From an uncultured delta proteobacterium (GTDB lineage: Bacteria > Myxococcota_A > Polyangia > Fen-1088), in NCBI GenBank assembly GCA_963796685.1, contig CAWCMR010000025.1:128001-192000 (forward strand): a DNA stretch of 64,000 nt, written 5' to 3'. A program made the position numbers and the translations under genes. Positions 16,207-52,709 of the stretch are shown piece by piece. The notes below the pieces were generated by a model. The model saw only the letters and a program-made list of their open reading frames with translations, was not told the DNA's origin and searched no databases. Numbering within the stretch: position 1 is the first letter of the stretch; every line of letters begins with the position of its first letter.

Positions 16207-16235
16207 TGAGCCAATCCCTGGCCGCCTCGCTACTG
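16207..16235 (+). promoter_or_regulatory. Putative ECF promoter, likely autoregulatory for ECF-1
   Basis: TGAGCC-N17-CTACTG, 33 nt before ATG 16269; the motif recurs at six other sites. Confidence 0.65.
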
Positions 16236-16268
16236 TGTACGCATACGAACCCTTACCCTTGTCGGTCC

Positions 16269-16907
16269 ATGTCAATTCGCCGTTTCCATATACCGCTCTC
16301 GCTCGTGGTCGATCCGGACAATGGGAACGTCAGCGACAGCGACCTTGCGCGGGCGCTCATCGCCGGGGCTGCCTGGGCACACGCCGAAACGTGGAATCGT
16401 TTCGCGCCCATGGTGTTCGGCATGGCGGCCCGTGCCCTGGGTTCGGAATCCGAGGCGGAAGACGTGGTCCAGGAGGTCTTCTACCGCGTGCTCGCGAAAG
16501 CCAAGTCCCTGCGCAATCCCGAGAGCCTGCACAGCTTCATCGTCTCGTTCGCCATCCGCATCCTGAAATGGGAGCTGCGTCGGAAGCGAACGCGAAGTTG
16601 GCTGTCCTTCCGCCAGCCGGAGCTGCTGGCCGATATCGCGTGCGAGACGCTGGACGTCGAGTCGCGCGATCTCCTGCGGAGATTCTATGCGTTTCTGTCT
16701 CGCCAAGCGCCGCGCGAGAGGCTGGTCCTTTCGCTGCGTTACTTGGAATCGATGACGGTCGAGGAGATCGCCAAGGCCATGGAGCTCTCGGTGTCCACGG
16801 TGAAGAGGTCATTGGAATGCGCCAAGAGAAAGTTGTCGCATTGGATCGAGACCGATCTCGAGCTGGTCGGACTTCTCGATGGAAAGCGTGGATTCAATGA
16901 AGACTGA
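16269..16907 (+). CDS. ECF sigma factor (ECF-1)
   Basis: EAEDVVQEVF (region 2) and MTVEEIAKAMELSVSTVKRSL (region 4 HTH). Confidence 0.9.
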   Translation: MSIRRFHIPLSLVVDPDNGNVSDSDLARALIAGAAWAHAETWNRFAPMVFGMAARALGSESEAEDVVQEVFYRVLAKAKSLRNPESLHSFIVSFAIRILKWELRRKRTRSWLSFRQPELLADIACETLDVESRDLLRRFYAFLSRQAPRERLVLSLRYLESMTVEEIAKAMELSVSTVKRSLECAKRKLSHWIETDLELVGLLDGKRGFNED

Positions 16908-18201
16908 TGGTGGTGAACGGACAGATCCTTCTGCGCTCGAGACCCTGACCGCGCTCGCCCGTCACAGCGTGCGTCCTGCCACGCCCGCGCAGCTCAGCCG
17001 GGGCTGGTCCGCGGTCTCGATTCGCCTTGCCGCCCGCAAGGCGCGATGGAAAGGCATGCTTCGTCTGACCTTGGTCGGAGCCACGGCCTCTGCCTTGGCC
17101 TTGGTCGCGCTCGGCATCGTCTCGTGGTCTCGCGCGCATTTGCAGCCCACGGTGCCTGCCCCGCTTGCCTACCAGATCCAGGGTGGCAGCGTCGTAGAAG
17201 GTGGGTACCTTCGGGAATCGGGCAAAGGGGCCGTCAAGCTCGTCTTCGCGGAAGGGACCGAGCTCGTGCTCATGCCGGGAGCGCGCGGGCGGCTACGCTC
17301 GGTCGAGAGCACGGGCGCCCGCATCGCCATCGAACATGGCACGGCGTCCTTCCAGGTCACGCCACGCAGCGATGCCAGGTGGCTGGTCGACGTCGGCCCC
17401 TTCCTGGTCACGGTCAAGGGAACGGTGTTCACGGTTTCCTGGGATGCGGTCAAGGAACGATTCGAGCTCAGGCTGCAGCACGGCCGCGTGTCGGTCACCG
17501 GTCCGATTGCCGGCGGCACGATTCCGCTGCGCGCCGGCCAACGACTGGTCATCAACCTGCCCAAGGAAGAAATCCTCATCACCGAGCAGAAGCCGGAAGA
17601 GGCCTGGCTGGGGATGCCGCCGGGCGGGCCGACCCCCGCGACCGACGTCGCCGCGGAGGATCGTCCGACCGCGGGCCCCGCGGACCAGGGATCCTCGGGG
17701 CCATCCCCATCCGTCGCGGGCAAGACGAATGGTCGGCGCACGTGGGCCGAGGCACTGGCATCGGGTGACTGGGACCGGATTCTCACCGACGTGGACCGCA
17801 TCGGCGTGCAGCGGACGCTGGCCGATGCGTCCAGCGAGGATCTCTTCGCCCTGGCCGATGCCGCCCGATATCGACGCCGCCGCGGCTTGGCGCGCGCGGC
17901 CCTGCTGGCGGAGCGAAAGCGCTTTCCGGAATCGGTCCGCGCCCTCGATGCCGCCTTCCTGCTCGGCCGTTTGGAGGAAGCGAATGAACGAGGCACGAAC
18001 AAGGCCATCGCCTGGTACGACGAGTATCTGGCCCGAGCGCCGAACGGGACGTACGCCTCGGAAGCCCTCGGACGAACGATGACCGCGACCAGCCAGCTGG
18101 AAGGCACCGCGCGGGCGCAGCCCGTCGCCGAGGACTATCTCCGCCGTTTTCCGGATGGTACCTACGCAGGGGCGGCACGAGCGCTGCTTACCGCCCCCTG
18201 A
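16897..18201 (+). CDS. Transmembrane anti-sigma factor with FecR-like and C-terminal TPR-like domains
   Basis: Overlaps the sigma stop; one TM helix; FecR-like IEHGTASFQV...VTVKGTVFTV...LQHGRVSV; TPR-like AAFLLGRL, YLRRFPDGTYA. Confidence 0.85.
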   Translation: MKTDGGERTDPSALETLTALARHSVRPATPAQLSRGWSAVSIRLAARKARWKGMLRLTLVGATASALALVALGIVSWSRAHLQPTVPAPLAYQIQGGSVVEGGYLRESGKGAVKLVFAEGTELVLMPGARGRLRSVESTGARIAIEHGTASFQVTPRSDARWLVDVGPFLVTVKGTVFTVSWDAVKERFELRLQHGRVSVTGPIAGGTIPLRAGQRLVINLPKEEILITEQKPEEAWLGMPPGGPTPATDVAAEDRPTAGPADQGSSGPSPSVAGKTNGRRTWAEALASGDWDRILTDVDRIGVQRTLADASSEDLFALADAARYRRRRGLARAALLAERKRFPESVRALDAAFLLGRLEEANERGTNKAIAWYDEYLARAPNGTYASEALGRTMTATSQLEGTARAQPVAEDYLRRFPDGTYAGAARALLTAP

Positions 18202-18211
18202 TCAGGTCCCC

Positions 18212-19249
18212 GTGGGTCGGTTCACCCTCACCTTGTCTCTTCTCGCGGCCATGCTGTGGGCGACATCCTCGCTCGCGGCAACGGTGGTTCTCGTGCGGCC
18301 CCCCCATCCCACGACGGGCATGACCGAGGCCCTGGTGCGCATCCACGGAGAGCTGGTGTCGGCGGGCTTCGGGGTGGAGAGCGCGGATGGACCGGCCGTG
18401 GAAAGCACGGATGGGGAATCCCGGAGCTGGCTGGAGCAGTTGGCGGCACGCCGTGGCGCCGACGCGGTCATTGCCGTGATGGGAGACAAGTCGCCCGATT
18501 CCGTCGAGGTATGGGTCGTCGATAAGGTGACCGGAAAGTCGGTCGTCCGCCATGTCCCCTTTCGCCCGCTGTCGGCAAAGGGGCCGGAGACCCTGGCCAT
18601 TCAAGCCGTCGAGCTTTTGCGCGCCAGCTTCCTCGAGATCGATCTCACTTCCAATGCCCGACCGAGCGAGGTCAAACCGGCTCCGCCGCCGACGGTGGTT
18701 CACTTCGTGGAGATGGAACAAAGGGCGAAACAGGCGGAGCGTTTTGGCGTCGAAGTGGGTGGGGCTGCGAGCATGAGCTTGGACGGGGTCGGTCCGGCGG
18801 TCATGCCCGTCGTGCGTTTCGCTTGGGCCGCGCGACCATGGTTCATCGCGCACGCGACCGTGGCTGGAATGGGCAGTCGACCCAGCGTCCGAACCTCGGC
18901 GGCGAGCGCCCAGGTCGATCAGGAATTCGCCCTGCTCGGTGCCAGCTACTGCTTCAGGGTCGACACGCGGTTGCGGCCCTTCGTCTCGCTTTCCGCCGGC
19001 GTGCTTCATACCGCGGTGGAGGGCCGCGCCGACTGGCCGTTGCAAGCACAGCATGCGGGACAATGGTCCTTCTTGCTCGACGGGGGAATCGGCGCGGAGG
19101 CGCCGCTGCGAGAGCGTTTCTACCTGTCGCTGGCCGCACGCGCGCAAGTCGCCGACCCCTATCCCGCCGTTCGTCTTGCGGGCGCCGTGGTCGCCACGGC
19201 TGAACGTCCAAGCATCCTTCTGACCCTCTCGCTCGGAGCCTGGCTATGA
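18212..19249 (+). CDS. Exported protein with periplasmic N-domain and probable small (about 8-strand) OM beta-barrel
   Basis: Signal peptide ending SLA; Pro linker; amphipathic strands including LRPFVSLSAG; terminal LSLGAWL beta-signal-like end. Confidence 0.65.
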   Translation: MGRFTLTLSLLAAMLWATSSLAATVVLVRPPHPTTGMTEALVRIHGELVSAGFGVESADGPAVESTDGESRSWLEQLAARRGADAVIAVMGDKSPDSVEVWVVDKVTGKSVVRHVPFRPLSAKGPETLAIQAVELLRASFLEIDLTSNARPSEVKPAPPPTVVHFVEMEQRAKQAERFGVEVGGAASMSLDGVGPAVMPVVRFAWAARPWFIAHATVAGMGSRPSVRTSAASAQVDQEFALLGASYCFRVDTRLRPFVSLSAGVLHTAVEGRADWPLQAQHAGQWSFLLDGGIGAEAPLRERFYLSLAARAQVADPYPAVRLAGAVVATAERPSILLTLSLGAWL

Positions 19250-20181
19250 ACCTACATCGATACTGCTTCACCTTCCTCTGGCTGGCGATCGGCTGCACAC
19301 GCGGCACGCTGGATGCCGTGTTGCCTGGGCCCGCAACGGACGGCGGCGGCAATGCCGGCGGCAACGAGGCCGGCATCGGCAGCGTGACCTGCCCGTCGCC
19401 CGCGCTCAAAGCGGGCGACACCAACCAGACGGTCCAGGTGGGCGCCACGACCCGCAGCTATGTCTTGCACATTCCCGCGACGTACGACAACAGCAAGCCA
19501 GCTCCCCTGATCCTCGATTTCCATGCCCAGAATGGCTCGGGGCCGAGCGAGCTGTCGCTGTCGCCCTATCCCGCGCAAACCGATCCGGAGGGCGTCGTCA
19601 TGGCCTTTCCGACCGGCCTCAAAGGACCGGGGGGCGCCGCCTGGAACGTGGGACCGTGTTGCGTGGCCGGGGTCGACGATGTGGCGTTTGCCAGGGCGCT
19701 CGTGGCGCAGGTACAGGCCGCCGCCTGCATCGACCCCAAGCGCGTCTACGCCGTGGGCCTGGCCACGGGGGGGGGCATGGCCTACTACCTCGCGTGCCAC
19801 ACGGCCGATATGGTCGCGGCGGTGGCGCCGGCCGCGTTCGACTTGCTGGAAGAGAACGTCGGCGATTGCAAGCCATCGCGCCCCGTCACGGTGATCTCGT
19901 TTCGTGGCACCGCCGATACGTTGGTGCCCTACGTCGGCGGGTACTCCACGGTGGTGCCGGGCATGCCGGTCACCTTTCTCGGCGCGCAGGCGACCTTCCA
20001 GAAGTGGGCAGAGCTCGACCAGTGTACGGACTCGCCATCGCTGACGGACAGCAGCGGCTGCTCGACCTATTCCGCGTGCCAGGGCGGCGTCGAGGTGGTG
20101 CTGTGCACGAAGCAGGGCGGTGGACTGGAAGCCGGCAATCCCAGCGTCGCGTGGCCGGTGCTCAGGCGCCACACGCTGTGA
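19246..20181 (+). CDS. LpqC/PHB-depolymerase-type esterase-fold lipoprotein, predicted catalytically inactive
   Basis: AIGC lipobox; colinear with the 33103 paralog but GLATG replaces GYSLG and KQGGGL replaces KQGGGH; ATGA-coupled to the barrel gene. Confidence 0.8.
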   Translation: MNLHRYCFTFLWLAIGCTRGTLDAVLPGPATDGGGNAGGNEAGIGSVTCPSPALKAGDTNQTVQVGATTRSYVLHIPATYDNSKPAPLILDFHAQNGSGPSELSLSPYPAQTDPEGVVMAFPTGLKGPGGAAWNVGPCCVAGVDDVAFARALVAQVQAAACIDPKRVYAVGLATGGGMAYYLACHTADMVAAVAPAAFDLLEENVGDCKPSRPVTVISFRGTADTLVPYVGGYSTVVPGMPVTFLGAQATFQKWAELDQCTDSPSLTDSSGCSTYSACQGGVEVVLCTKQGGGLEAGNPSVAWPVLRRHTL

Positions 20182-20354: not shown

Positions 20355-20477
20355 GTGGTGGTCGTAGACGTCGTCGTGGATGTTCCCGTGGCCGTGGCCG
20401 TGGCCGACGAAGATCGCTCCGGCCACGGCCACGACCAGGACCACGACCACGACCTCCCGCGGCTATCGCGGGATTAC
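20355..20477. repeat. GTGGCC/CCACGA-rich REP-like element, copy 1
   Basis: Hexamer runs GTGGCC opposed by GGCCAC/CCACGA (hairpin-capable); ends gacctcccgcggctatcgcgggatta. Confidence 0.5.
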
Positions 20478-21515
20478 GGTCGCCGCGTCTGGCTTTCGTG
20501 CCACGTGGGACCGATCGCCCGACCATGGACCCGGGACGGCCGTGGTGGCGTCCCAGGGCAGAAAACCATCGACATTGAAGCCTCCCGGGCTCACGCCAAA
20601 GTGCTTCCGGAAGGCTTTGCGGAAGGCGTGCGTGGTACTGAAGCCACATTGGCGCGCCAGATCCTTGGCCGTGAATCCATCATCTCGGATCAGGTGCGCG
20701 GCGTGCTCCAGTCGAACGAGTCTGAGATATCGACCGGGAGAGATCCCCCAGATCTTCTCGAACAGACGGGTGAAGTGGAATCTGCTCATTTTCGCAACGC
20801 GCGCCAGGTCTGCGACACCCACAGGACGTGAATAGTTCCGCCGGCAAAACTCTTCGACCTCGAGGACGAAGGCGGGCACGGCCGGCAAGCGGCACTCGGA
20901 TAACTGCGCCGGCCGGCAACATTCGCCAAGCAACGCCATCAAGATTGCGTGGGCAGCCGATGAGCCCTGGGACGGCGACCCTATCCTCTGCTCCAGAGCA
21001 TCGGCGCACGCCCCGGCGACGCGCGCAAGTGTTGGCGAATTGGCGGCCAAGGTTACGACCGGGCCAACACTGTCCGCAACCTCGCGAATGCAACGAATCA
21101 CTTCACGACCGGCCAAGGTGACATAGAAGGATTCCCACCGTTCGCCGGCCTGGAGCCAATAGTGGTGTTCATAAGGATAGGATAGCAGGAGCGCCTGGCC
21201 CGGCCCGACGACGATTTGCCGATCGTAGTAGCGAAGCCGGGCGCGTCCGCTCAGGGTGTACCGGATGGCAGCCAACCCTCGGTTGCTGGGATTGCTCCCG
21301 TTTCCATTGTAGCTCGGGCCGCGCTGCAATTGGAAACCGGCGCTGTGGACTTGCGCCGGCATTGGACCCAGCAAGTCCGGAAACACCACCGATTCGCGAT
21401 GCCCCAACTCGAGCAGTCGGGCAATGCCGGGAACATCCTTCAGCGCCTTCCGGGTCACGTCGGCACGTCGCCGCGCCGGCGTCCCAGACCTGACCTCGTC
21501 GAAGCCCCGGACCAA
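20463..21515 (-). CDS. AraC-family transcriptional regulator
   Basis: Cupin-like YTLSGRA...GPGQALL; double HTH VADLARVAKMSRFHFTRLF...CGFSTTHAFRKAFRKHFGVSP. Confidence 0.9.
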   Translation of the reverse strand: MVRGFDEVRSGTPARRRADVTRKALKDVPGIARLLELGHRESVVFPDLLGPMPAQVHSAGFQLQRGPSYNGNGSNPSNRGLAAIRYTLSGRARLRYYDRQIVVGPGQALLLSYPYEHHYWLQAGERWESFYVTLAGREVIRCIREVADSVGPVVTLAANSPTLARVAGACADALEQRIGSPSQGSSAAHAILMALLGECCRPAQLSECRLPAVPAFVLEVEEFCRRNYSRPVGVADLARVAKMSRFHFTRLFEKIWGISPGRYLRLVRLEHAAHLIRDDGFTAKDLARQCGFSTTHAFRKAFRKHFGVSPGGFNVDGFLPWDATTAVPGPWSGDRSHVARKPDAATVIPR

Positions 21516-24116: not shown

Positions 24117-24765
24117 ATGCCACTGCATTTTGGGAAGAAGATGATGATGGGAAGCAAATCGACCGCGCAGGTTTCTGCTGTCCCGTCCCATGCAGATCCT
24201 GCTCCAGACATTTCGGCCTTTCCCGTGCCTACCCTCCAAGCCATCTACAAGGAATATTTCGACTTTGTGTGGTCGTCGGCCAGACACCTCGGTGCCACGA
24301 GCGACGTCATCGACGACGTGGTTCAGGATGTGTTCATCGTGATCCATTTCAAGCTCGCGACGTTGCAAAGGCCGGAAGCCTTGCGCAGCTGGATCTATGG
24401 TATTGTGCGGCGTACGGTGAGCGACTACCGGCGGTCCAGACGGACCAGGGATGCCGCCGGAGCGAGGCTCGGCGCCGAGCTGCAAATCGGGCCGGCCATC
24501 CCAACCGTCGCCTCTCGACATGGCCGAGAGAAACGCCGAGCTGGAGCTGCTCGAGAGCGTCCTGGAAGAGCTCGACGAGTCGAGGCGGGAGGTCTTCGTC
24601 ATGGTGGAGGTCTTGGAAATGACGGTCCCGGAAGTCGTTCAATCACTTGAAATACCTTTGAATACAGCTTATTCACGGCTTCGACTGGCAAGGCAATCCT
24701 TCGAGGAAGCACTCGCCAAGCATGAGGCACGTGACAAGGAGAATAGGAAACCATGTCACCCTTGA
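24117..24765 (+). CDS. ECF sigma factor (ECF-2), +1 frameshift near 24485
   Basis: DDVVQDVFIV, LRSWIYGI in the first frame; REVFVMVEVLEMTVPEVVQSLEIPLNTAYSRLRLAR in the +1 frame. Confidence 0.85.
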
Positions 24766-25448
24766 GTCCCAAAGGACGCGATCTCGTCCGTGCCGGCCGG
24801 CGTGCTTTTCAACCCACGGATGGAGACCGCGAGAGACTCCTCAGCGCGCTACGCTCTCGACTGGGCGACGCCGCGCTTCCGCCCAACATGGGCTCGGCGG
24901 CGAACGTGGCCGCTGCGGCGAGCCGATCGATTTGGCCGCTCATCTCGGCGGTCGTGGTCGGCATCGGTATCGTCGGTGGATCCCTGTACCTTGCCCACCG
25001 CCCGGCCGCGCAAGCCAACCATCAGCAAGAGACAAGCTCCGCGCCGATCACCGAGCCGACACGGGAGACCGATCACATTGCAGCGCCATCCGCCGGGCAC
25101 CCAACAGGCGTCGCCGTCGCGCCGCCCGCGCCCGAGCTGCCCACGCCGTCCGTGTCCCACTCCCGCCATGCACAGGATCGGCTGGCCGCCGAGGTCGCGC
25201 TCCTCTCACGGGCGACCCGTGATTTGCGTGCCGGCCGCCCTGTGGAGGCTCTGAAATCCCTCGACGAGTATCGCCGCAAGTTTCCCAAAGGGCTGCTCGG
25301 CGAAGAGCAACGCGCAGCCAGAGCGCAGACGCTGTGTGCGCTAGGGCGGTTCGACGAGGCGAACGAGAAGATTGCCGGGCTTGCCCCGCAATCTCCGCTG
25401 GCGGTGCGAGCAAAGCAGTTCTGCGAGGCGCGCTTGGCGGCCCGATAG
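24753..25448 (+). CDS. Transmembrane anti-sigma-like protein with Pro-rich linker and TPR-like domain
   Basis: Overlaps the sigma stop; TM LISAVVVGIGIVGGSLYL; LAAEVALL...YRRKFPKGLLGEE...LCALGR. Confidence 0.75.
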   Translation: MSPLSPKGRDLVRAGRRAFQPTDGDRERLLSALRSRLGDAALPPNMGSAANVAAAASRSIWPLISAVVVGIGIVGGSLYLAHRPAAQANHQQETSSAPITEPTRETDHIAAPSAGHPTGVAVAPPAPELPTPSVSHSRHAQDRLAAEVALLSRATRDLRAGRPVEALKSLDEYRRKFPKGLLGEEQRAARAQTLCALGRFDEANEKIAGLAPQSPLAVRAKQFCEARLAAR

Positions 25449-25554: not shown

Positions 25555-25583
25555 TGGACCAATTTTGAGAGATCAAGCGACTG
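25555..25583 (+). promoter_or_regulatory. Putative ECF promoter of the GH10 gene
   Basis: TGGACC-N17-CGACTG. Confidence 0.5.
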
Positions 25584-25657
25584 CTAAGTATGCCTTGGGG
25601 CGAAGGCACCTGTCTTCCCTCCGCCAGAGCTGAAGACATTCGAAACAAGCAAGGAGT

Positions 25658-27022
25658 TTGACGATGCATCTTCGATCAAGTTTGGTTCTTGGCATTGTGA
25701 CGGGAGTCGGTACCGTATTCGCATATGGTTGTTCGCCGTCGGGAGGGACCATGAGCGGCAGCGGAGGAAGCACGGCTTCGAGCAGCGGCGGGCAAGTTGG
25801 AACGGGTGGCGCATCGGAAAGCGGCGGCCAAGTCGGTACGGGTGGCGCGTCGGGAACCGGTGGCGCGTCGGGAACCGGTGGCAAGGTCGGGAGCGGTGGC
25901 GCGACGGGTACCGACAGCACGACGACAGGGAGCGGTGGGGCTACAGTCAGCGGCGGCAATACCGGCTCTGGAGGGGCTGCCGGCGGCGCGACGGGCATGG
26001 GCGGAACCGTGAGCAGGGACGGGGCCGTAGATGGCGCCGGCAAACGTGACGGCGGCGGCATGCGTGATTCCGGTCCAGCCACCACGGGCGGTGGGACTGG
26101 GACCGGCGGCTCGACCGGCGCAGGCGGCACATCTGGCCCCGGCGGCTCGACGGGCGCACCCGGAACGATCAGAAAGTACTTCGGCAACATCGATACCTCA
26201 GGTTCCATCCGCTCGGATTTCAAGTCCATGTGGGATCAGTTCAGTCCCGAGAACGCCGGGAAATGGGGCTCGGTGCAGGGCAGCTCTGCAAGCACCTTCA
26301 ATTGGTCTACGCTGGACGCCATGTACAAGTACACCCAGGACAACAATATCCTCTTCAAGGAGCACTGTTTCTTTTGGGCTGCTCAGCAACCGAGCATGGC
26401 GACCAACAGCAATATCGAGACCGTCGGCAAGGCGTGGATGAAGGCCTTCTGCGATCGCTACCCCAAGACCGCGATGATTGACGTCTTCAACGAGTCGCTG
26501 CACAACTCGCCGGCGTACAAGACCGGCATGGGCGGCACCGGCACCACAGGCTACGACTGGCTCATCAATGCCTTCACATGGGCGAGGGAGGCGTGTCCAA
26601 ACGCCATCTTGCTCTATAATGATTACAACACCATCGAGTACTCCAACGAAAACAGCGGCGTCATCAAGCTGGTGAAAGCCATCAAGGCCGCCGGCGCCCC
26701 CATCGACGGGGTCGGCTGCCAAGGCCACGATGTCGGCAAGGTCTCGGCGAGCACGGTGACGACTTACGTCAACAATATCATTAGCCAAACGGGCGTGCCC
26801 GTCTACATCACGGAGATGGACGTCGGGGAAGCCGACGACAACACGCAGATGACGAAGATCAAGGATGTCGTCACGCCGCTTTGGGCCAACGATCAGGTGA
26901 AGGGCATTACCTACTGGGGCTATATCGTCGGCCGGACGTGGAGAGACAATACCGGGCTCATGACGGACAGCGGCACGAAGCGCGCGGCGCTGACCTGGCT
27001 GCTGGGCTTCCTCGGCCGATGA
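25658..27022 (+). CDS. GH10 endo-1,4-beta-xylanase, lipoprotein with Gly-rich linker
   Basis: AYGC lipobox; PENAGKW, DVFNES (acid/base), YNDYN, GCQGH, YITEMD (nucleophile). Confidence 0.9.
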   Translation: MTMHLRSSLVLGIVTGVGTVFAYGCSPSGGTMSGSGGSTASSSGGQVGTGGASESGGQVGTGGASGTGGASGTGGKVGSGGATGTDSTTTGSGGATVSGGNTGSGGAAGGATGMGGTVSRDGAVDGAGKRDGGGMRDSGPATTGGGTGTGGSTGAGGTSGPGGSTGAPGTIRKYFGNIDTSGSIRSDFKSMWDQFSPENAGKWGSVQGSSASTFNWSTLDAMYKYTQDNNILFKEHCFFWAAQQPSMATNSNIETVGKAWMKAFCDRYPKTAMIDVFNESLHNSPAYKTGMGGTGTTGYDWLINAFTWAREACPNAILLYNDYNTIEYSNENSGVIKLVKAIKAAGAPIDGVGCQGHDVGKVSASTVTTYVNNIISQTGVPVYITEMDVGEADDNTQMTKIKDVVTPLWANDQVKGITYWGYIVGRTWRDNTGLMTDSGTKRAALTWLLGFLGR

Positions 27023-27048
27023 GCCGTTCCGTGGGACGTTGGGAACTG
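27020..27048 (+). promoter_or_regulatory. Putative ECF promoter, likely autoregulatory for ECF-3
   Basis: TGAGCC-N17-GAACTG, 29 nt before ATG 27078; overlaps the GH10 stop codon. Confidence 0.65.
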
Positions 27049-27077: not shown

Positions 27078-27716
27078 ATGGGCCCCCGCAGTTCCCATGT
27101 AAAGCTGGCGCTCGTGGGCCCGCCCGCACGCGAGCACCTGAGCGACGCCGAATTGGCGCGTGCTCTGATATCCGGTGCGGCGTGGGCCTATGCGGAAACC
27201 TGGAACCGCTTTTCTCCCGTCGTCTTCAACATGGCGATCAGCGCGCTGGGATCGCCATCGGAGGCTGAAGACATCGTCCAGGAGGTCTTTTGCCGTTTGG
27301 TCGGAAAGGCCAAGACCCTTCGCCAGCCGGAATGCCTCCGCAGTTTCATCGTCTCTTTCGCCATTCGCGTCCTAAAATGGGATCTGCGCCGCAGACGCGT
27401 GCACGGCTGGCTGACCTTCGAACCTGGGGAGGCGCTGATAGACGTGGTCCGAGTCTCCCTCGACGTCGAATCTCGTGACATACTCCGGCGTTTCTATGCA
27501 CTCTTGTCCCGGCTTGGCGCACGCGAGCGCCTGGCGTACGCGTTGAGGCACATCGAATCGATGACCATCGAGGAGACGGCGCAGGCCATGGACCTGTCGG
27601 TGTCGACGGTGAAGAGGCTGCATGAGCGAGCGACGGACCAGCTATCCAAGTGGAGCGAAACGGATTTCGAGCTGACCGGGCTTCTCCTGAGAAAGCGTGG
27701 GTGGCATGAGACCTGA
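27078..27716 (+). CDS. ECF sigma factor (ECF-3), paralog of ECF-1
   Basis: SDAELARALI, EAEDIVQEVF, SFIVSFAIR, LSVSTVKRL. Confidence 0.9.
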   Translation: MGPRSSHVKLALVGPPAREHLSDAELARALISGAAWAYAETWNRFSPVVFNMAISALGSPSEAEDIVQEVFCRLVGKAKTLRQPECLRSFIVSFAIRVLKWDLRRRRVHGWLTFEPGEALIDVVRVSLDVESRDILRRFYALLSRLGARERLAYALRHIESMTIEETAQAMDLSVSTVKRLHERATDQLSKWSETDFELTGLLLRKRGWHET

Positions 27717-29043
27717 TGTCGGTGGAACGCCCGATCCCTCTCCACTCGCCATCCTGACCGAGTTGGCCCGCGATGCGCGCAATCAGCTTCCCCGCCCCAC
27801 GCCCGAAGAACTGGGAGACAAGTGGGAGTTGGTCTCGACGCGTATTGCTGCGCAGAAGGCTCGTCGCAGGATCCTCATTCGACTTTCGATGGCTGGTGCG
27901 CTGGCCACCGCAGCAATAGCGGCATGGGTACTTCCGCGGCCGGGTCGACTGTCAGTGCCTGCCACGGCGCCGGCGGCCCTCAGCTATCGAATTGAAGGCG
28001 GAAACGTCGTAGACGGCGGCTACCTGCGCGAGTCCGGCTCCGACACGGTCAGGATGCGATTTACCGAGGGTACGGAATTCGTGCTCAGCCCGGGAACCCG
28101 GGCACGCCTGCGATCGGTCTCGAGCTCGGGCGCGCGCATCGCCATCGAACATGGCACCGCATCCTTCCAGGTCACACCGCGCAGCGAGGCGCTGTGGCAA
28201 GTCGACGTCGGGCCATTCCTTGTCACGGTGAAGGGAACCATGTTCACGGTTTCCTGGGATGCGGTCGGCGAACGATTCGATCTAAGACTCCGGCATGGCG
28301 AGGTGTCGGTGACCGGACCGGTTTCCACGGGAGCAATCTCCGTGAAAGCGAATCAGCGATTGGTCATCGATCTGCCCAAGAAGGAAACCGTGATCACGGA
28401 GGAAGACGATGGAGAGAGCTCTGCCGGGATCGGCTCCCCGCGGTCAGAGAGCACGGACCAGGTCAAAAGCCCCGCCTCCGAGCGCCCCTCGCCGTTGGTA
28501 GCCCGACCGACTGGCCAAAATCCCGCGTTGTCGACCGAACGGAGGACTGCCAAGTCTGGCGCGGGCCGAGGTTGGGGCGAAGCCGTGGCGGCAGGACAAT
28601 GGGATCGCGTCCTCACCGAGGTCGATCGCGCCGGCGTGAAGCAAACCCTGGCGCACGCCTCCAGTGAGGACCTTCTGGCGCTGGCCGACGCGGCCCGCTA
28701 TCGGCGACGAACGGGGCTGGCGCGTGCGGCGCTGCTGGCCGAACGCGATCGCTTCCCCGGATCCCCCTCGGCCCTGGACGCCGCGTTCCTCCTCGGCCGC
28801 CTCGAAGAATCGCGACACGGCGAGCGGCAAGAGGAGATGGTCGAGGCGATTCGGTGGTACGATACATACCTTTCGGGAGCGCCTTCAGGCACCTACGCTT
28901 CCGAGGCGCTGGGACGGAAGATCATTGCGACGAAAGGCCTCCGCGGGGCCGCCGCGGCCGAATCTCTGGCCAGGGAATACCTGCGACGTTTCCCTGGCGG
29001 CCCCTATGCCGGCGCCGCGCGCGAGCTGCTGCTTCATCCGTGA
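27697..29043 (+). CDS. FecR-like/TPR transmembrane anti-sigma factor, paralog of 16897
   Basis: Shared blocks GGYLRESG, GARIAIEHGTASFQVTPRS, ASSEDLxALADAARYRRR, ALDAAFLLGRLEE. Confidence 0.85.
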   Translation: MGGMRPDVGGTPDPSPLAILTELARDARNQLPRPTPEELGDKWELVSTRIAAQKARRRILIRLSMAGALATAAIAAWVLPRPGRLSVPATAPAALSYRIEGGNVVDGGYLRESGSDTVRMRFTEGTEFVLSPGTRARLRSVSSSGARIAIEHGTASFQVTPRSEALWQVDVGPFLVTVKGTMFTVSWDAVGERFDLRLRHGEVSVTGPVSTGAISVKANQRLVIDLPKKETVITEEDDGESSAGIGSPRSESTDQVKSPASERPSPLVARPTGQNPALSTERRTAKSGAGRGWGEAVAAGQWDRVLTEVDRAGVKQTLAHASSEDLLALADAARYRRRTGLARAALLAERDRFPGSPSALDAAFLLGRLEESRHGERQEEMVEAIRWYDTYLSGAPSGTYASEALGRKIIATKGLRGAAAAESLAREYLRRFPGGPYAGAARELLLHP

Positions 29044-29053: not shown

Positions 29054-30082
29054 GTGCGTCGGCTGGCAATCGACGTCGTCCTGCTGACGGTGCTTCTCTG
29101 GGCTGTGGATGCTTCGGCAGCCAGCGTGATGCTCGTGCGGCCGCCGAATCCGTCCGCCCCCATGGCCGAAGCCATCGTGCGCGTGCGCGGCGAGCTCATA
29201 TCCGAGGGCTTCCAGGTGGATGTCATGGACGGACTCAAGGGCGCGGAATCGCGCGCTTGGCTCGAGCAGCTGGCGGAAGCCCACAAAGCAGATGCGGTCG
29301 TCGCCGTCCTCGGCGATGAAACACCGGACTCGGTCGAGGTTTGGGTGATCGACAAGGTAACCGAAAAGACGGTCGTCCGACGAATACCCTTCAAGCCGCA
29401 ATCCGACCACGCAGCCAAGACCTTCGCCATTCACACGCTCAAGCTTCTCCGCGCCAGCTTTCTGGAAATCGACCTCCGGCTCGGTGGCCGGCCTAGCGAA
29501 GCCAGGTCGGTCCCTCCGGAGGTGGAACACTTTGTCGATGGCGAAAACCCACCCCATCGGGAGGGACGCTTCGGCGTCGAGCTCGGTGGCGCGGCGGTCA
29601 TCGGCCTTGGCGACATCGGGCCGGCGCTCCTCCCCGTCATGCGCCTGGGCTGGGCCATCCGGCCATCGCTGGTCGCCCAGGTGACGGTGGGGGGGTACGG
29701 GTCGCGTCCCAGCGTCCAAACCGACGTGGGCAGCGCCCAGGTCGCCCAAGAATTTGCCGTGCTCGGGGCACGCTACCGATTTCTTCCCGGTCGTCGCGTA
29801 CGCCCCACCCTCTCTCTTTCGGCGGGGGTGCTTCACTCCCGCGTCGAGGCCCAGGCCCCGGCCGATTCGCCCTACCAAAGCCGAGATGCGGCCTTGTGGT
29901 CGTTTCTGCTCGATGGCGGTGCCGGCATTGGGGTCGCACTTGCCGAACGGTTCGAGATAACATTGGCGGCCCATGCACAAATCGCGAACCCATATCCCGC
30001 CATCCGCTTCGACAGATCGGTCGTGGCCACGTCCACCCGTCCCAGTCTTCTTTTCATCCTGACGATTGGGGCTTGGCGATGA
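29054..30082 (+). CDS. Periplasmic N-domain + small OM beta-barrel protein, paralog of 18212
   Basis: GTG start; signal peptide; PDSVEVWVxDKVT, LLRASFLEIDL, WSFLLDGG; ends LTIGAWR. Confidence 0.7.
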   Translation: MRRLAIDVVLLTVLLWAVDASAASVMLVRPPNPSAPMAEAIVRVRGELISEGFQVDVMDGLKGAESRAWLEQLAEAHKADAVVAVLGDETPDSVEVWVIDKVTEKTVVRRIPFKPQSDHAAKTFAIHTLKLLRASFLEIDLRLGGRPSEARSVPPEVEHFVDGENPPHREGRFGVELGGAAVIGLGDIGPALLPVMRLGWAIRPSLVAQVTVGGYGSRPSVQTDVGSAQVAQEFAVLGARYRFLPGRRVRPTLSLSAGVLHSRVEAQAPADSPYQSRDAALWSFLLDGGAGIGVALAERFEITLAAHAQIANPYPAIRFDRSVVATSTRPSLLFILTIGAWR

Positions 30083-31591: not shown

Positions 31592-31637
31592 CTCGACGCC
31601 TCGACGCACCAGACAATGACCTGGCGCCGTTCCACGT

Positions 31638-31670
31638 TTTCCCGAGGCTTTCCCGAGGCTTTCCCGAGGA
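31638..31670 (+). repeat. Three direct 11-bp repeats just upstream of an ECF promoter
   Basis: tttcccgaggc tttcccgaggc tttcccgagga. Confidence 0.85.
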
Positions 31671-31673
31671 TCC

Positions 31674-31702
31674 TGAGCCGAAATGGCCGTCAGCCGGAAC
31701 TG
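31674..31702 (+). promoter_or_regulatory. Putative ECF promoter (GAACTG class)
   Basis: TGAGCC-N17-GAACTG. Confidence 0.65.
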
Positions 31703-31729
31703 TTACGCCGAGGAGTTTATCTTTCGCTC

Positions 31730-38171: not shown

Positions 38172-38454
38172 GGAAGCTGCGGGAGTATGCGCCGCCCGCG
38201 CGCCCCGATGCAAGCAAGCGCGAAGGACAAGGACCGCGGTGCACACACATCTTTCGCGAACCAACGAGACGGAATTCGATTGCCCATGCCACTGCTAGTT
38301 CTTCCCTGCGATGCTTTGGGACGGATCTGTCGCTGGGCATCACTCGCGTATCGACTCGAAGGACACGAAAGGTGCTATCTTCTACCAAAGCGCAAACCGT
38401 ACGACTCCTGCAGGGTCTTTGTCCAACCACTCGTGGCTATCAAGGCACGTTGAC

Positions 38455-45585: not shown

Positions 45586-45614
45586 TGAACCGCTCCTTCG
45601 GTCCGCTGCTACTG
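45586..45614 (+). promoter_or_regulatory. Putative ECF promoter (CTACTG class)
   Basis: TGAACC-N17-CTACTG. Confidence 0.65.
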
Positions 45615-45652: not shown

Positions 45653-46780
45653 ATGAAACTCGCAATTCCGAATCTGCTCAAGAGCGGTTTATTGCTCGGT
45701 CTGATGAGCGTTGGCGTCTACGCATGTGGACAATCGAACGGCGGTGGCAACGGCACTGGCGGCAGCTCGGAGGGGGGCTCGGGTGGCACGGGTAGCGGAG
45801 GTCATACTGCCGGCTCGGGAGGCTCCACCAGCGCGGGCGGAACCACGACCTCCGGCGGGACAACGGGCTCGGGTGGCACGCATGAAACGGGCGGCACCGT
45901 TGGCTCAGGTGGCAGCAACTCCGGCGGCACATCGTCGTCGGGCGGCGCAGCGACAGGAGGCTCGTCCTCGGGTGGCGCAGGCGGTTCGTCCAGCAGCACG
46001 GCCATGGGCGGCACTGGAGGCATGCTCTCGGAAGGGACCGGAGGCAAGGTCACGGGTAGCGGCGGCAAGGTCACGGGTAGCGGCGGCATGGCCCCGGGCA
46101 GCGGCGGCAAAGGCGGTACCAGCGGCCCGACCGACGGAGGCCCAGCAGCCGGTGGCACCGGCGGCGGCACATCCTCTGGTTCGTGCCAGAAAGGCCAAGT
46201 GAAGCCCGCCGAGGTCGTCATCATGGGCGAATCCTTCTATGCGATGCCCCCCGAATACAATGAGAAGCGGATAGAGTCGGATGCCCAAGCGGCGGGAGCG
46301 CTGGCTTCTGGCGCCACCTACCGAAACGTAGCCGAAAGCGGACAACCGATGAGCTATATCGTGGGGACGGAGTGGACCAATGCCACCAAGGGCGGCGCAA
46401 CAGTCAAGGTCGTCATCATGGATGGCGGTGGTATCGATTGTCTCACGTCGGGATCGTGTCCCACGTGTGCCTCCCAATTCACAACCCTGCTCGGCAAGAT
46501 GGCTACCGAAGGCGTGCAGGACGTCATCTACACGCGCTATCCGGAACCGGGAGCCCCTCCCGGCTCGAACGCCTCATTGAAAGCGTGCCTCGACTCCGTT
46601 ATGCCGACAATGCAACCTGTGTGTGAAAACGCCACCGGACTGAAATGCCATTGGGTGGACTTGAGACCCGTTTTCGTGGCTGGCGACACCACGGACGGCC
46701 TCCATCCGACCCAAACAGGCGGAGACCACGTCGGAGACGCGATTTGGTCCGAGATGGTCAAGGATTGCATCGCCCAGTGA
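45653..46780 (+). CDS. SGNH/GDSL-like hydrolase lipoprotein with Gly-rich linker
   Basis: VYAC lipobox; IMGESF (GDS variant), DGGGID, DGLHP; GGAGG RBS. Confidence 0.75.
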   Translation: MKLAIPNLLKSGLLLGLMSVGVYACGQSNGGGNGTGGSSEGGSGGTGSGGHTAGSGGSTSAGGTTTSGGTTGSGGTHETGGTVGSGGSNSGGTSSSGGAATGGSSSGGAGGSSSSTAMGGTGGMLSEGTGGKVTGSGGKVTGSGGMAPGSGGKGGTSGPTDGGPAAGGTGGGTSSGSCQKGQVKPAEVVIMGESFYAMPPEYNEKRIESDAQAAGALASGATYRNVAESGQPMSYIVGTEWTNATKGGATVKVVIMDGGGIDCLTSGSCPTCASQFTTLLGKMATEGVQDVIYTRYPEPGAPPGSNASLKACLDSVMPTMQPVCENATGLKCHWVDLRPVFVAGDTTDGLHPTQTGGDHVGDAIWSEMVKDCIAQ

Positions 46781-49829: not shown

Positions 49830-51285
49830 CATAGGTAGGTACTTAAGCGGTGGCGGAATGGCGTAATCCCATCGCAAGGCGCCCCATTCCCTGATCGCGT
49901 TTGGGATGCGCACGAGGTGCGTTTTCCGCGAGGAAAGTGAAGGCAGAACGGATATGCGACAGGAGCTGCGCGGCAGATTCGAGGATGGATAGCAGGATCG
50001 CGTCGAGGAAATGCTTGGCAGAGCAGGCTGCGCGCTGGGTGGACAGTGGAATACCGCATGCGTGTTCTGCGGCGTGGGTGAGCGCTCGTTTGATGGTCGC
50101 GGCAAGCAGGCTTGCCCAGATCAGGCCCTCGGCGATGGGTGACTTGGCCGTGTCGAATTTGTGGAGATTTGCGTAGGACTTCCATTCCTTGAAGAGGAGC
50201 TCAATCTGCCATCTGAGTCTGTAGACTCTGCCTACTTCGTGAGCGGTGAAGGTCGCTCTCGACAGATTCGTGTGCAGATAGGTGTAGCCCTTCTTGTTGC
50301 GTTTTCCTTCGATGTAGATGGCAACGAGACGACCACAGTAGGTCCTGCGGGCGTTGATCTTCCACTCGATTTCTAGGTCGACCGTATGACGAGGCAGTAC
50401 ACGCCACTTGAGTCGCTTGCCCTCGAGACGAGGGATACGCCTGCCATTCTTGTCGCGAGCACTTCGGATGATTGGTCGGCTGTTCTTTTTGCCGCGAACG
50501 ATGAAGAATCCTCCGGCGTCGAGAGTGTCTGCAAAGACAACGCGATCCTCGAATCCACGGTCCTCGAGGACCAGGCGATTTTTGAGAGACGCCGCTTTGG
50601 GGGCGAATGGGCGTTCGCTTTCCTTGTCAGGGGCCAGCGTAATGGCGACGGGATTGTCCCTCAAGACGCTCATGGTTACGTGGAGCTCCACTGCCGCTGG
50701 GGTCACCTTCGTGAAGCGGCCGGGCCACTTTCTGGCCAGAGTGTCTTTGAGCGCAAACGAGGTGCCGTCATGGCACAGGATCTCCGAGAACTGAGCCAGC
50801 TTGCCCTTGGGCAAACTCTCAAGCACAGGTGCCGTCAGCTTCGCGAGCGCCTGTTCGAGAATGGCGTGCATGAAGATGGGGAATCGCCGTTTGCTCAGTT
50901 GGTTGTGGAAAGGCTTGTAGCGAACAGCCTTGCCGGTGAACGCGTTGAAGGCGCGCAGGATGTCCGCGAGCCACGCAGCCGTGCCTGCCCCCAATGCCGA
51001 GATGCAGGCTATAAGAAGCGCGGCCGGGGCGATTTCACGGCGCCGTCGAAGAAAGCCACACCGGCGAGCCACCTTCTCCACCTCGGCATCGCTGAGAACC
51101 TGCTGTAGCTTTTGGCTGAGTGTCTCCGCCTCGATTGTGGCAATGTCTCTCTTGGGCACAGGGAACCTCCTCGCGTTTGTCTTCGCAAACGAATGTGTAG
51201 GAGGATTCCTGTGTCTTCTGCAACTACCTTGAACATCCGTTCAGTAAGTGATCGATTTCATTGAGGAATTAAGATCCTACCTATG
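49830..51285 (-). mobile_element. Complete IS4-family insertion sequence, 1456 bp (CAT ends and 10-bp duplication fit the ISH8 subgroup)
   Basis: Terminal IRs CATAGGTAGGTACTTAA / CATAGGTAGGATCTTAA; 10-bp target duplication AGGGGCGAAT at 49820-49829 and 51286-51295. Confidence 0.95.
49843..51159 (-). CDS. IS4-family DDE transposase
   Basis: DGT, DRGF and YRLRWQIELLFKEWKS (YREK signature). Confidence 0.95.
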   Translation of the reverse strand: MPKRDIATIEAETLSQKLQQVLSDAEVEKVARRCGFLRRRREIAPAALLIACISALGAGTAAWLADILRAFNAFTGKAVRYKPFHNQLSKRRFPIFMHAILEQALAKLTAPVLESLPKGKLAQFSEILCHDGTSFALKDTLARKWPGRFTKVTPAAVELHVTMSVLRDNPVAITLAPDKESERPFAPKAASLKNRLVLEDRGFEDRVVFADTLDAGGFFIVRGKKNSRPIIRSARDKNGRRIPRLEGKRLKWRVLPRHTVDLEIEWKINARRTYCGRLVAIYIEGKRNKKGYTYLHTNLSRATFTAHEVGRVYRLRWQIELLFKEWKSYANLHKFDTAKSPIAEGLIWASLLAATIKRALTHAAEHACGIPLSTQRAACSAKHFLDAILLSILESAAQLLSHIRSAFTFLAENAPRAHPKRDQGMGRLAMGLRHSATA

Positions 51286-51700
51286 AGGGGCGAATCGAGC
51301 GCGCCGTCGAGGACGCCTCCGGCCCCCCCCGAGCCGGCGACGCCCCCTCCGCCTGCTGCTCCCACTTCCGACGGCCCGGTTGTGCCGCCACCGCCAGTGC
51401 CTGTCTCTCGGTAAGGCGCGTCCGTCGGTGCGTCGCCTGATGAACCGTCAATCTGCGCACCCGCGCCTCCGGTTGACACCGGATTGCTGCACGTCTTCCC
51501 ATCGGAAGATGCACAGCAATATCTGTTCGAGCCACAGACGTATCCCTCCGGGCAGTTCTTTTCCGTCTGGCATTTGCGAGGTTGGGTGACATCGATCTTC
51601 GGATCTTTGAAGCATCCGAGAACGGACCCAGCCAGGAACAGCGCCAGAGCAAGACTCTCGCGGGCACGCCGTACGGACAGAGGAGAGGACGACGAACGCA

Positions 51701-52513
51701 TTAGAAAGCTCCTGTAAGTAGGGCCCCTGCCGTGCCAGGAGCGATAGTCGGTACCAGCGCGACACTGGTCTGCGCTGGGCTGTGACCGGCGTGCCAGCCG
51801 AGGAAGTAGAGCAGCGAGCCACCGGCCAGGCAGGCGGCGCCCACTCCGTAGCTGATCCACCCCAGTGTCTTGTAGCTCTCGCGCGAAGAATTGGTGTCGC
51901 GGTTGAAGTTGTCGGGCTTCTCGAGATCCGTCGCCATGCTGTTGGCCTTGAGATTCAAGGCCACCCCGGTGCCCAAGGCCACCACGCCCAACGATCCTAC
52001 GACGATGCCCGCGATGCGCAGGCGGGAGCCGGCGTTCTCGTCGGGCTGCTGCGCCGCTGTCGCAACGACGACTGCCGGCGGCTCAGGGGTAACCTCGGCC
52101 GGCGGCGGCGTTGGAACGATCGGGACGGCCGAGACCGGTTCCGGCACCAGGGGCGAACGCGGCTCGGTCTTGGGCAGATAGGACTCGCAGGTCTCGATGT
52201 GCTTCTTGGCGGCGGCCTTGTCGTCGTCCGACAGGTGATCCTCACCTTTCGTCAGGTACTCACGAAAACGCCCGACGGCGTCTTCATAACGACGGTTCTG
52301 CTCGAAGCATCGTCCCTGGTTGAAGATATAGGTGATGTCGTTGGTATCCACGTAGAGCTCGGCGAGAATGCGCACGCCCTTCTCCGGCTCTCCCGAGAGA
52401 CACGCCTTTTTGGCAGCGCGCTCGTTGGCTCGTTTGCTGTTCGCCGCGAGAGCCTGCTGGGAGAGCGAGCAGAGGCTCGCCAATGTCACGAAGGCTATTG
52501 TAAGGTTTCGCAT
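51701..52513 (-). CDS. Exported TPR-like protein with hydrophobic C-terminal segments, coupled to the Cys-rich lipoprotein
   Basis: Signal peptide ending ALA; YIFNQGRCFEQNRRYEDAVGRFREYL; Pro linker; ends GALLTGAF; TAATG overlap with the next gene. Confidence 0.75.
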   Translation of the reverse strand: MRNLTIAFVTLASLCSLSQQALAANSKRANERAAKKACLSGEPEKGVRILAELYVDTNDITYIFNQGRCFEQNRRYEDAVGRFREYLTKGEDHLSDDDKAAAKKHIETCESYLPKTEPRSPLVPEPVSAVPIVPTPPPAEVTPEPPAVVVATAAQQPDENAGSRLRIAGIVVGSLGVVALGTGVALNLKANSMATDLEKPDNFNRDTNSSRESYKTLGWISYGVGAACLAGGSLLYFLGWHAGHSPAQTSVALVPTIAPGTAGALLTGAF

Positions 52514-52680
52514 CTCTCATCTCTTTCCAAGCACGGGTGCCACTCTTCGGCAACTGGCCCATCTTGACACATTGAACCGCGAGCAATATACGCGAAAGAA
52601 TAGAGCACCGCTACCACGAGATGCTGCCTGATGCTGTCTGACCGTGTCCTGGGCAAATCGAACCTCGTTCTTGAATCTCG

Positions 52681-52709
52681 TGGCCCGTTTTTCGAGCCCG
52701 CTGCTACTG
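52681..52709 (+). promoter_or_regulatory. Putative ECF promoter (CTACTG class)
   Basis: TGGCCC-N17-CTACTG; shares ccgctgctactg with the 45586 site. Confidence 0.55.

Follow-up and report, generated by a model that had tools for sequence, protein, structure and literature searches.

The window analyzed here is a 64,000-nucleotide stretch (G000:C25:128001-192000) of the draft genome G000, from an uncultured delta proteobacterium of a Myxococcota lineage. This genome is 7.31 Mb in length with 64.6% GC, and the window represents 0.88% of it. The window contains seven copies of a two-box motif, each a short distance ahead of a gene or operon. [quoted passage not shown] Window positions are used throughout; C-numbers denote contigs of G000, other G-numbers denote genomes of relatives, and L-numbers denote fetched loci.

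Gene context was judged from open reading frames (ORFs) directly because a rough codon-usage caller misplaced the starts of genes with Gly-rich linkers and put some real sites inside genes. Domains were called by Pfam on 36 window ORFs. The features are listed below, with motif sites given as putative promoters and lengths in nucleotides (nt).

16207–16235, plus strand: promoter of the ECF-1 operon, TGAGCC-N17-(G)CTACTG, 33 nt to the ATG at 16269
16269–16907, plus strand: ECF-1 sigma, 212 residues (Pfam Sigma70_r2, r4, r4_2, Sigma70_ECF)
16879–18201, plus strand: anti-sigma 1, with one predicted membrane span, FecR, and a C-terminal TPR (Pfam FecR, TPR_16)
18212–19249, plus strand: third module gene 1, 345 residues, with a signal peptide, an alpha/beta N-domain, and a predicted C-terminal 8-stranded outer-membrane barrel; no Pfam match
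19246–20181, plus strand: lipoprotein esterase, last gene of the ECF-1 operon (weak Esterase_PHB / DLH match)
20463–21515: AraC-family regulator (Pfam)
25555–25583, plus strand: promoter of the GH10 gene, TGGACC-N17-(G)CGACTG, 80 nt to the ATG at 25664 (74 nt to a TTG at 25658)
25664–27022, plus strand: GH10 xylanase-type lipoprotein with a Gly/Ser/Thr-rich linker (Pfam Glyco_hydro_10, 6.7e-52)
27020–27048, plus strand: promoter of the ECF-3 operon, TGAGCC-N17-(G)GAACTG, 29 nt to the ATG at 27078
27078–27716, plus strand: ECF-3 sigma, 212 residues, 63% identical to ECF-1 (Pfam Sigma70_r2, r4, r4_2, Sigma70_ECF)
27697–29043, plus strand: anti-sigma 3 (FecR and TPR), 58% identical to anti-sigma 1
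29054–30082, plus strand: third module gene 3 (barrel protein), with 55% identity to its counterpart gene 1
30079–31591, plus strand: GH29-type fucosidase that ends the ECF-3 operon and has an F5/8 type C domain (Pfam)
31674–31702, plus strand: promoter of an SGNH gene, TGAGCC-N17-(G)GAACTG, 27 nt to the ATG at 31730
31730–33016, plus strand: SGNH/GDSL hydrolase lipoprotein with a long Gly-rich linker (Pfam, ORF reading)
37129–37157, minus strand: promoter of the three-esterase operon, TGAACC-N17-(G)GAACTG, 28 or 70 nt to an ATG at 37100 or 37058
33103–37100, minus strand: esterase operon, with a lipoprotein leader ORF at 36894–37100 and esterases at 35841–36863, 34477–35802, and 33103–34461 (gaps between esterases of 38 and 15 nt)
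45586–45614, plus strand: promoter of an SGNH-like gene (SGNH-45k), TGAACC-N17-(G)CTACTG, 38 nt to the ATG at 45653
45653–46780, plus strand: SGNH-like lipoprotein with a Gly-rich linker (Pfam, N-terminus reading)
52681–52709, plus strand: promoter of the esterase-DUF3237 operon (Est-52k), TGGCCC-N17-(G)CTACTG, 36 nt to the ATG at 52746
52746–55536, plus strand: operon of an esterase lipoprotein (52746–53996) and a DUF3237 lipoprotein (54007–55536) (Pfam, N-terminus reading)

The two-box motif and its conservation

A preliminary description of this stretch had proposed seven copies of one ECF-type promoter, with a spacer of exactly 17 nt, a G ahead of the −10 hexamer, and a start codon 27 to 75 nt downstream. 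All seven copies are present where it placed them and with the sequences it gave, including the minus-strand copy given as 37157, which spans 37129–37157. The distance range was essentially right; measured from the last G of the motif, it is 27 to 80 nt over the seven sites. The proposed targets (two ECF genes, GH10, two SGNH genes, three esterases, and an esterase with DUF3237) agree with both the ORF reading and Pfam. Target proteins of the five non-sigma sites each carry a lipoprotein signal followed by a Gly/Ser/Thr-rich linker of 100 to 200 residues. Nearby non-target enzymes (GH9 and the esterase at 55556–57160) lack the lipoprotein signal and linker. The TGA of the −35 box at the ECF-3 promoter is also the stop codon of the GH10 gene.

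The loose form of the motif, TGRNCC-N17-NNACTG, has nine matches in the window. The mean in 100 dinucleotide-preserving shuffles is 1.18 (sd 1.27, maximum 7), and none of the shuffles reaches nine, so the motif is commoner here than in shuffled sequence. Seven of the nine matches are the sites listed above. The other two are within coding sequence, at 17743 in an anti-sigma gene and at 37581–37609 on the minus strand in the ORF 37173–38264, and were for this reason rightly excluded from the set. The match at 17743–17771 recurs at the equivalent place in paralogues (G000 C7:8291; G009 C313:1674). This stretch codes for a conserved TPR-region peptide and is not a promoter.

Enrichment in the window is limited to a single spacing. 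When spacers of 12 to 23 nt were compared using the loose pattern, spacer 17 gave 76 matches in the genome, nine of which are in the window, and spacer 18 gave 59 with one in the window. Spacers 12 to 16 and 19 to 23 gave 51 to 83 genome matches each with only zero to two in the window. A strict pattern that includes the G, TG[AG]NCC-N16-G[CG]NACTG, has 22 matches in the whole genome, and the seven that fall in the window are exactly the seven sites. The G precedes the −10 hexamer in 7/7 window sites and in 20/20 sites upstream of sigma genes in relatives, which were collected with a pattern that did not demand it. When the seven sites are aligned with 30 nt flanks, the only invariant columns are T31, G32, C35, C36, G53, A56, C57, T58, and G59, all within the motif. 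The sites are therefore not copies of a duplicated DNA segment.

The sigma family has four paralogues in G000: ECF-1, ECF-3, one on contig 7 (the C7 paralogue), and one at C25:549319. Homologues were sought at E<=1e-30 in 40 related genomes, 24 from the same family and 16 from other families of the class. They are present in 17 of the 24 and in none of the 16. The first strict pattern placed the motif ahead of 16 of 30 fetched sigma loci, and the remaining loci included variants with a spacer of 18 nt or a TGAGCT box. A broadened pattern that allows both places the motif upstream of the sigma gene in 36 of 45 related loci, 19 to 41 nt from its start. Duplicates and the two further G000 paralogues are included in this count. 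It is at the same place in 13/13 close sigma loci in a separately fetched set of contigs, and the ECF-1 site is kept at an equal position in the orthologous loci L002, L003, and others. Eight loci of distant ECFs have no motif match on either strand (0/8; 92 kb). More distant sigmas of the same three-gene module (sigma, anti-sigma, barrel protein) from other families carry TGAGC(C/T)-N17-NNACT(G/T/A) upstream. Autoregulation, which had been suggested from the general habit of ECFs, is thus favored comparatively by a motif that lies about 30 nt ahead of sigma orthologues across the genus and family. An autoregulated promoter of ECF type is the best reading of the motif.

One relative of the same genus, G004 (99% complete), has no family sigma at E<=1e-30. 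Its best match to the Est-52k protein is only 37% identical, and its eight strict-pattern matches are the fewest in the genus. The sigma module may be acquired and lost jointly with its targets.

The motif was followed beyond the window using a core weight matrix trained solely on 33 sites of other genomes. The top 18 matches in G000 (at least 18.1 bits) include all seven window sites and five others, at C25:283332, C13:35360, C12:45095, C7:6748, and C19:3378. One of these five lies ahead of the C7 sigma paralogue, and the other four lie ahead of lipoprotein esterases with Gly-rich linkers (two PETase-like and two Esterase_PHB / alpha-beta hydrolase), with starts at +19 to +74. As a control, matches outside the window were checked for an ORF within 10 to 115 nt that is homologous to a window sigma, esterase, SGNH, GH10, or DUF3237 protein. 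Such an ORF follows 3 of 32 matches with spacers of 17 and 18 nt, 0 of 180 matches with eleven other spacers, and 0 of 48 matches to the reversed pattern (0/228 controls). Only the strongest promoter-positioned sites can be claimed.

A wide-flank matrix built only from sigma-upstream sites was dropped because it over-weighted autopromoter features and missed four window targets at threshold. High-scoring matches at C12:85870, C13:489653, C13:533233, C15:364850, C5:402411, and C18:19511 are not claimed, as they appear intragenic or lack a plausible downstream gene. A near-motif (GCAGCTG) at C7:10846 is located after the C7 sigma module and 50 nt ahead of a lipoprotein gene with no Pfam match, and counts as a probable, though unproven, thirteenth site. 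This lipoprotein gene is followed by one for a Ser/Thr protein kinase (L068 12612-14009; Pkinase 2.7e-48), approximately 5 kb after the C7 paralogue. On this count the proposed regulon is small (about 13 sites in 7.3 Mb) and partly local.

Variants of the −10 box and a proposed choice between sister sigmas

The seven sites fall into three classes by the two bases ahead of ACTG: CT (ECF-1, SGNH-45k, Est-52k), GA (ECF-3, the SGNH gene at 31.7 kb, the three-esterase operon), and CG (GH10). Orthologous targets keep the motif in G002, G010, G001, G003, and G005, and the esterase gene that follows the ECF-1 module keeps its position in the same five genomes. G002 retains GCTACTG at its SGNH-45k and Est-52k orthologues and GGAACTG at its counterpart of the 31.7-kb SGNH gene. 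In G010, the ECF-1 operon has a GCTACTG site after it. The ECF-3 operon of G001 is followed by a GGAACTG site ahead of an esterase, and the three-esterase operon promoter in G003 keeps GGAACTG with an esterase that is 95% identical. Overall, GGAACTG is found ahead of 4/4 ECF-3 orthologues and of adjacent targets in G000, G002, and G001. The GH10 site keeps its position in G002 (GTGACTG) and G001 (TGGACT ... GTCACTG), but the whole GH10 leader is conserved as well, and conservation of the site therefore says less.

The GH10 leader, 80 nt long (25584–25663) and conserved in G002 and G001, contains an inverted repeat, GCCTT...AAGGC, that could form a regulatory hairpin. The block from approximately 25.5 to 37.2 kb (GH10, ECF-3 operon, SGNH, three esterases) is missing from this place in G002, where the 24.7-kb and 37-kb ORFs that flank it lie next to each other. 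The greater part of the block, from GH10 to the second esterase (Est34k), is on another G002 contig; the fetched stretch ended before the third esterase. ECF-3 and its targets appear to move as one cassette.

Three promoters show an identical T/G difference at one motif position. The syntenic ECF-1-type sigma promoter has GCT in G000, G002, and G010 and GCG in G001, G003, and G005. The Est-52k promoter has GCT in G000 and G002 and GCG in G001, G003, and G005 (the G010 orthologue was not located), and the SGNH-45k promoter has GCT in G000, G002, and G010 and GCG in G003.

This difference is accompanied by a difference in the sigma factor. Full mutagenesis assigned preference at −12 and −13 to the position of RpoE Asn84 (Todor et al. 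2020, PMC7776599). The residue aligned with Asn84, in the column after the invariant K83 of the alignment with E. coli RpoE, is W in 18/18 GCT sigmas and 4/4 GGA sigmas, and T in 4/4 GCG sigmas with a spacer of 17 nt. It is S in GCC, GCA, and spacer-18 GCG sigmas, and Y in one GCC sigma. The residue/base pairs Arg171/−31 and Ser172/−34 given in the same paper were used as register anchors. By our own count from the −35 box with RpoE spacing, the variable bases are located at −13/−12 or −12/−11. The ECF-3 clade is distinct in having a Cys beside the Lys56-equivalent residue and another Cys in the preceding loop, and these differences may matter for specificity. The motif-less sigma at C25:549319 has T at the Asn84-equivalent position and is therefore predicted to be able to serve GCG sites.

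On a maximum-likelihood tree of 41 distinct sigmas, the −10 variant requires 8 changes, compared with 21.3 when the labels are shuffled. GGAACTG corresponds to the ECF-3 clade (4/4), GCCACTG to the C7-paralogue clade, GCGACTG to a clade of G001, G003, G005, and G008, and GCTACTG to the rest, including outgroups.

The motif is real, it is positioned and conserved as described, and it covaries with the sigma residue. Read together, the comparisons make it very probable that a small set of autoregulated ECF paralogues reads the seven sites as promoters, with the −10 dinucleotide biasing the choice of paralogue. Recruitment of the sigma family would depend on the common −35 box (TGA-N-CC) together with the invariant G-N-N-ACTG in the −10 box. 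The two variable bases before ACTG, at about −13/−12, would bias each promoter to one paralogue, with CT favoring ECF-1 and GA favoring ECF-3. Each sigma operon would supply a sigma, a FecR-TPR anti-sigma, an outer-membrane barrel protein, and one enzyme. The regulon would comprise these operons and the linker lipoproteins (CE1-type and PETase-like esterases, SGNH hydrolases, GH10, DUF3237), which may remove ester groups from hemicellulose or similar polymers at the cell surface and cleave these polymers there. Binding of the sigmas to the motif, the transcription start positions, the inducing signal, and signaling from the barrel protein to the TPR domain are what we infer from these patterns. 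Sigma-specific −10 classes, as proposed in the preliminary description, are plausible in light of the covariation, and the cross-talk for which that description also left room may occur.

Several observations weigh against this interpretation, both of the motif and of the classes. The genome-wide search recovers the strongest promoter-positioned sites, but its strict count in G000 is not above that of the reversed control (22 vs 31), and in none of 25 genomes is the whole-genome count higher than the control count. A low matrix threshold returns equal numbers of matches at all spacers. The paralogue at C25:549319 and its clade have no recognizable motif upstream. With regard to the classes, ECF-1 and ECF-3 both have W at the Asn84-equivalent position though their −10 boxes differ, and G000 encodes no sigma with a GCG autopromoter that would match its GCG sites at GH10 and C13:35360. 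The DUF3237 promoters of G001 and G009 (GCA and GCG) mismatch the variant of the neighboring sigma. Going by a published correlation, the basic residue at the Lys56-equivalent position here would in one possible register favor T, not A, at −11. Clustering on the tree is weak evidence by itself because kinship alone would cluster the labels. The related genomes are not independent, and the T/G covariation may represent a single lineage split.

In the absence of genome-wide enrichment, the claim rests on approximately a dozen strong, promoter-positioned sites, and the signal is in the position and clustering of the motif and not in its raw count. Strict counts are low in the sigma-less genomes G004 (8 vs 28 in the reversed control) and G014 (7 vs 42). 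They are low as well in the sigma-bearing G008 (14 vs 41) and G012 (18 vs 48), which makes the former only a weak hint.

The strongest alternative is that all paralogues read one promoter type indiscriminately and that the −10 differences are neutral drift inherited with duplicated blocks. Such drift would account for the shared W and −35 box of ECF-1 and ECF-3, for variants that cluster by descent, and for mismatched neighbors such as the GCG of GH10 beside ECF-3 and DUF3237 promoters with GCA or GCG beside sigmas with GCG and GCC. It does not readily account for three separate promoters in which two sets of genomes differ by the same T/G change but agree at the invariant bases on either side, or for the coincidence of that change with W/T at an experimentally defined −12/−13 determinant. 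In addition, ECF-3 targets keep GGA in three genomes, even with the block at another genomic place. Drift alone is accordingly an unlikely explanation, but one of some weight.

Reading the motif as the operator of a conventional transcription factor is highly improbable. An AraC-family protein is encoded in the locus (20463–21515), and carbohydrate-active targets are typical of AraC/XylR regulators. The motif, however, consists of two short boxes with a fixed spacer of 17 (rarely 18) unconserved nucleotides, always directed toward a gene and 27 to 80 nt from its start. It precedes sigma genes in the 36 of 45 loci counted above, including loci with 1.5 kb flanks in which no AraC gene was seen, one of its bases covaries with a sigma residue, and its −35 box matches published ECF boxes. 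Chance or a compositional artifact of GC-rich intergenic DNA, which the unexceptional genome-wide count would allow, has next to no probability given the shuffles, the single enriched spacing, the conservation at orthologous positions in several genomes, and the recovery of the sites by a matrix trained only on other genomes.

The putative sensor module and the surrounding genes

The anti-sigma genes overlap the stop codons of both sigma genes. The FecR domain (PF04773) scores 25.8 and 25.0 bits in the two anti-sigmas, barely over the cut-off of 24. The third (barrel) gene adjoins all four G000 paralogues and also a more distant ECF on C8. Elsewhere it was found in only 6 of 300 other sampled Myxococcota genomes (7/301 with G000). 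In the outside loci that were checked, a FecR-TPR gene precedes the third gene in 5/5 and an ECF gene in 3/5 (L092-L094); L095 and L096 have no ECF match ahead of the FecR-TPR and third genes.

An AlphaFold model of the third gene product, made with 11 sequences, has a signal helix and two further parts, an alpha/beta domain and an eight-stranded barrel. Its mean predicted local distance difference test (pLDDT) value is 64, with 70 to 88 in the barrel part. Foldseek matches this model to the OmpA, OmpW, OmpX, Ail, and NspA barrels with E values of 4e-8 to 2e-6 and TM scores of 0.63 to 0.72 on the target. A complex was predicted between the periplasmic part of the anti-sigma (residues 90-440) and the N-domain of the barrel protein (residues 22-145). 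It scored 0.81, compared with 0.01 for the best control. Of 157 solved complexes, 116 reach the mark used for this score, as do 2 of 215 mismatched pairs; these calibration counts hold only roughly here because our own alignments were used for the model. The runs agree in at least 45% of contacts, the partner pLDDT is at least 68, and the predicted contacts fall on the TPR part of the anti-sigma (residues 293-439). The model supports binding of the barrel protein N-domain to the anti-sigma TPR, through which the barrel protein may pass a signal to the anti-sigma. The resulting picture is a FecR-type system with a small barrel protein predicted to stand where FecA would be.

A fuller scheme can be proposed tentatively, as a possibility that falls short of an even chance. 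It is a new type of trans-envelope signaling, in which the barrel protein would replace a TonB-dependent transducer by docking on the TPR of a FecR-type anti-sigma and would thereby free one sister sigma. The sisters would be insulated by two promoter bases via the Asn84-equivalent residue and its neighbors, and each set would drive its own surface-tethered esterases and hydrolases for acetylated plant polymers. The orphan GCGACTG sites (GH10 and C13:35360) would be served by C25:549319.

Three genes of the locus have shifted or split reading frames. The GH29-type gene has a one-base difference from its G002 and G001 orthologues near 31556, which shifts the frame just ahead of the conserved C-terminus. 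As a consequence, the ORF at 29896–31947 runs over the SGNH promoter without a stop at about 31591. In the three-esterase operon, the first gene is spread over two frames: a 68-residue lipoprotein leader with a Gly-rich start is out of frame with the esterase body. This break (36863–36894, minus strand) is probably an indel in the repetitive linker. A further ECF-type sigma, likely the gene called ECF-2 in the preliminary description, is split at 24117–24765 on the plus strand, with Sigma70_r2 in the ORF 24117–24650 and Sigma70_r4_2 in the ORF 24451–24765. The split reflects either a frameshift in the gene or an error of assembly. This sigma is only distantly related to ECF-1 and ECF-3, has no motif, and is followed by a weakly TPR-like ORF (24753–25448).

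The two CTACTG targets SGNH-45k and Est-52k are separated by approximately 6 kb, which contains a DDE transposase (49843–51159, minus strand) and several short ORFs at 46.8–52.5 kb. The orthologous promoters in G002 are only about 2.2 kb apart, which suggests an insertion in G000. Surrounding genes without the motif include araA-type, araD-type, GH9 with CBM3 cellulase, GH2, GH27, and polysaccharide-lyase-like genes, among them those at 57214–59403 and 13558–16029. The region is a plant-polymer utilization island, and the sigma regulon is only part of it.

Comparison with known systems

The −10 core of most ECF groups is of the CGT or GTC type, whereas the −10 box here ends in an invariant ACTG. 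ECF-1 and ECF-3 are of the ECF (group 4) type in that Pfam finds only sigma regions 2 and 4, an anti-sigma gene is directly downstream, and a two-box motif precedes each sigma's own operon. Novel elements are the motif and regulon assigned to this sigma family, the pairing of residue and base among its sister sigmas, and a barrel protein as partner. None of the papers listed in literature searches on ECF sigma/anti-sigma pairs, Myxococcota, and esterases, or on FecR-linked ECF classification in Myxococcales, describes this system.

A promoter motif and a predicted regulon can now be given to a myxobacterial ECF family that resembles ECF267. Sister sigmas in one genome with the same −35 box, different bases at two −10 positions, and differences at the Asn84-equivalent residue would provide a natural test of the ECF specificity code, and their cross-talk and insulation are directly testable with reporters. 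Orthogonal sigma/promoter pairs of this kind would be useful parts for synthetic circuits. The system would also link ECF signaling to hemicellulose-deacetylating enzymes, an area that a recent review calls "less understood" (PMC10766802), and suggests a sensor made up of three genes and lacking a TonB-dependent receptor.

The autoregulated group 4 promoters discussed by Todor et al. (2020, PMC7776599) are alike in having a two-box promoter ahead of the sigma's own operon. The small, partly linked regulon here is similar to the "local regulator" type described in that paper, and differences at the Asn84-aligned residue are matched by changes at about −12/−13, as in the specificity code set out there. 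The present system is different in that several paralogues in one genome share a −35 box and are distinguished only by two −10 bases.

ECF267 comprises ECFs of Sorangium and Chondromyces whose +1 gene encodes a FecR-like anti-sigma with a TPR fusion and, in the group description, without a FecA-like or TonB-dependent receptor (Casas-Pastor et al. 2021, PMC7826278). That description places one to three protein kinases in the genetic context and calls the target promoter motifs "not conserved". The present system is alike in being myxobacterial, in its FecR-TPR anti-sigma at +1, and in having no FecA-like or TonB-dependent receptor nearby. It differs in belonging to an uncultured family and in its strongly conserved motif; the likeness is one to the described architecture. 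A protein kinase gene lies near the C7 locus. Pfam found no kinase, no TonB-dependent receptor or FecA-like protein, and no SusC/SusD pair among the 36 window ORFs.

FecI-FecR-FecA likewise combines the genes for an ECF sigma, for an anti-sigma in the inner membrane whose FecR domain is periplasmic, and for a partner in the outer membrane. FecA is a 22-stranded TonB-dependent transducer, whereas the partner here is predicted to be an OmpA/OmpW-like barrel of 8 strands that carries a periplasmic domain at its N-terminus. Contact is predicted via the C-terminal TPR of the anti-sigma, and the regulon consists of esterases and not of iron uptake genes.

The PUL-linked ECF240 (formerly ECF10) of Bacteroidota and SigI/RsgI of Clostridium thermocellum, as outlined in a review (PMC10766802; see also PMC6056542 and PMC4711584), are alike in logic, with autoregulated paralogous sigma/anti-sigma pairs each tied to its own polysaccharide-degrading genes. 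ECF240 has the SusC/SusD partner that was absent from the scanned ORFs. SigI is not of ECF type, and RsgI senses with CBM-like domains; the motif and sensor here are different.

With regard to the motif, a TGAACC −35 box is given for ECF17, ECF33, and ECF209 in the supplementary text of PMC7826278, where the −10 box of ECF209 is CCGACTGT, almost the same core as GCGACTG here. ECF209 as described there is actinobacterial with a four-helix membrane partner, and the likeness is in the motif only. These published boxes place the motif of the present sigma family within known ECF style.

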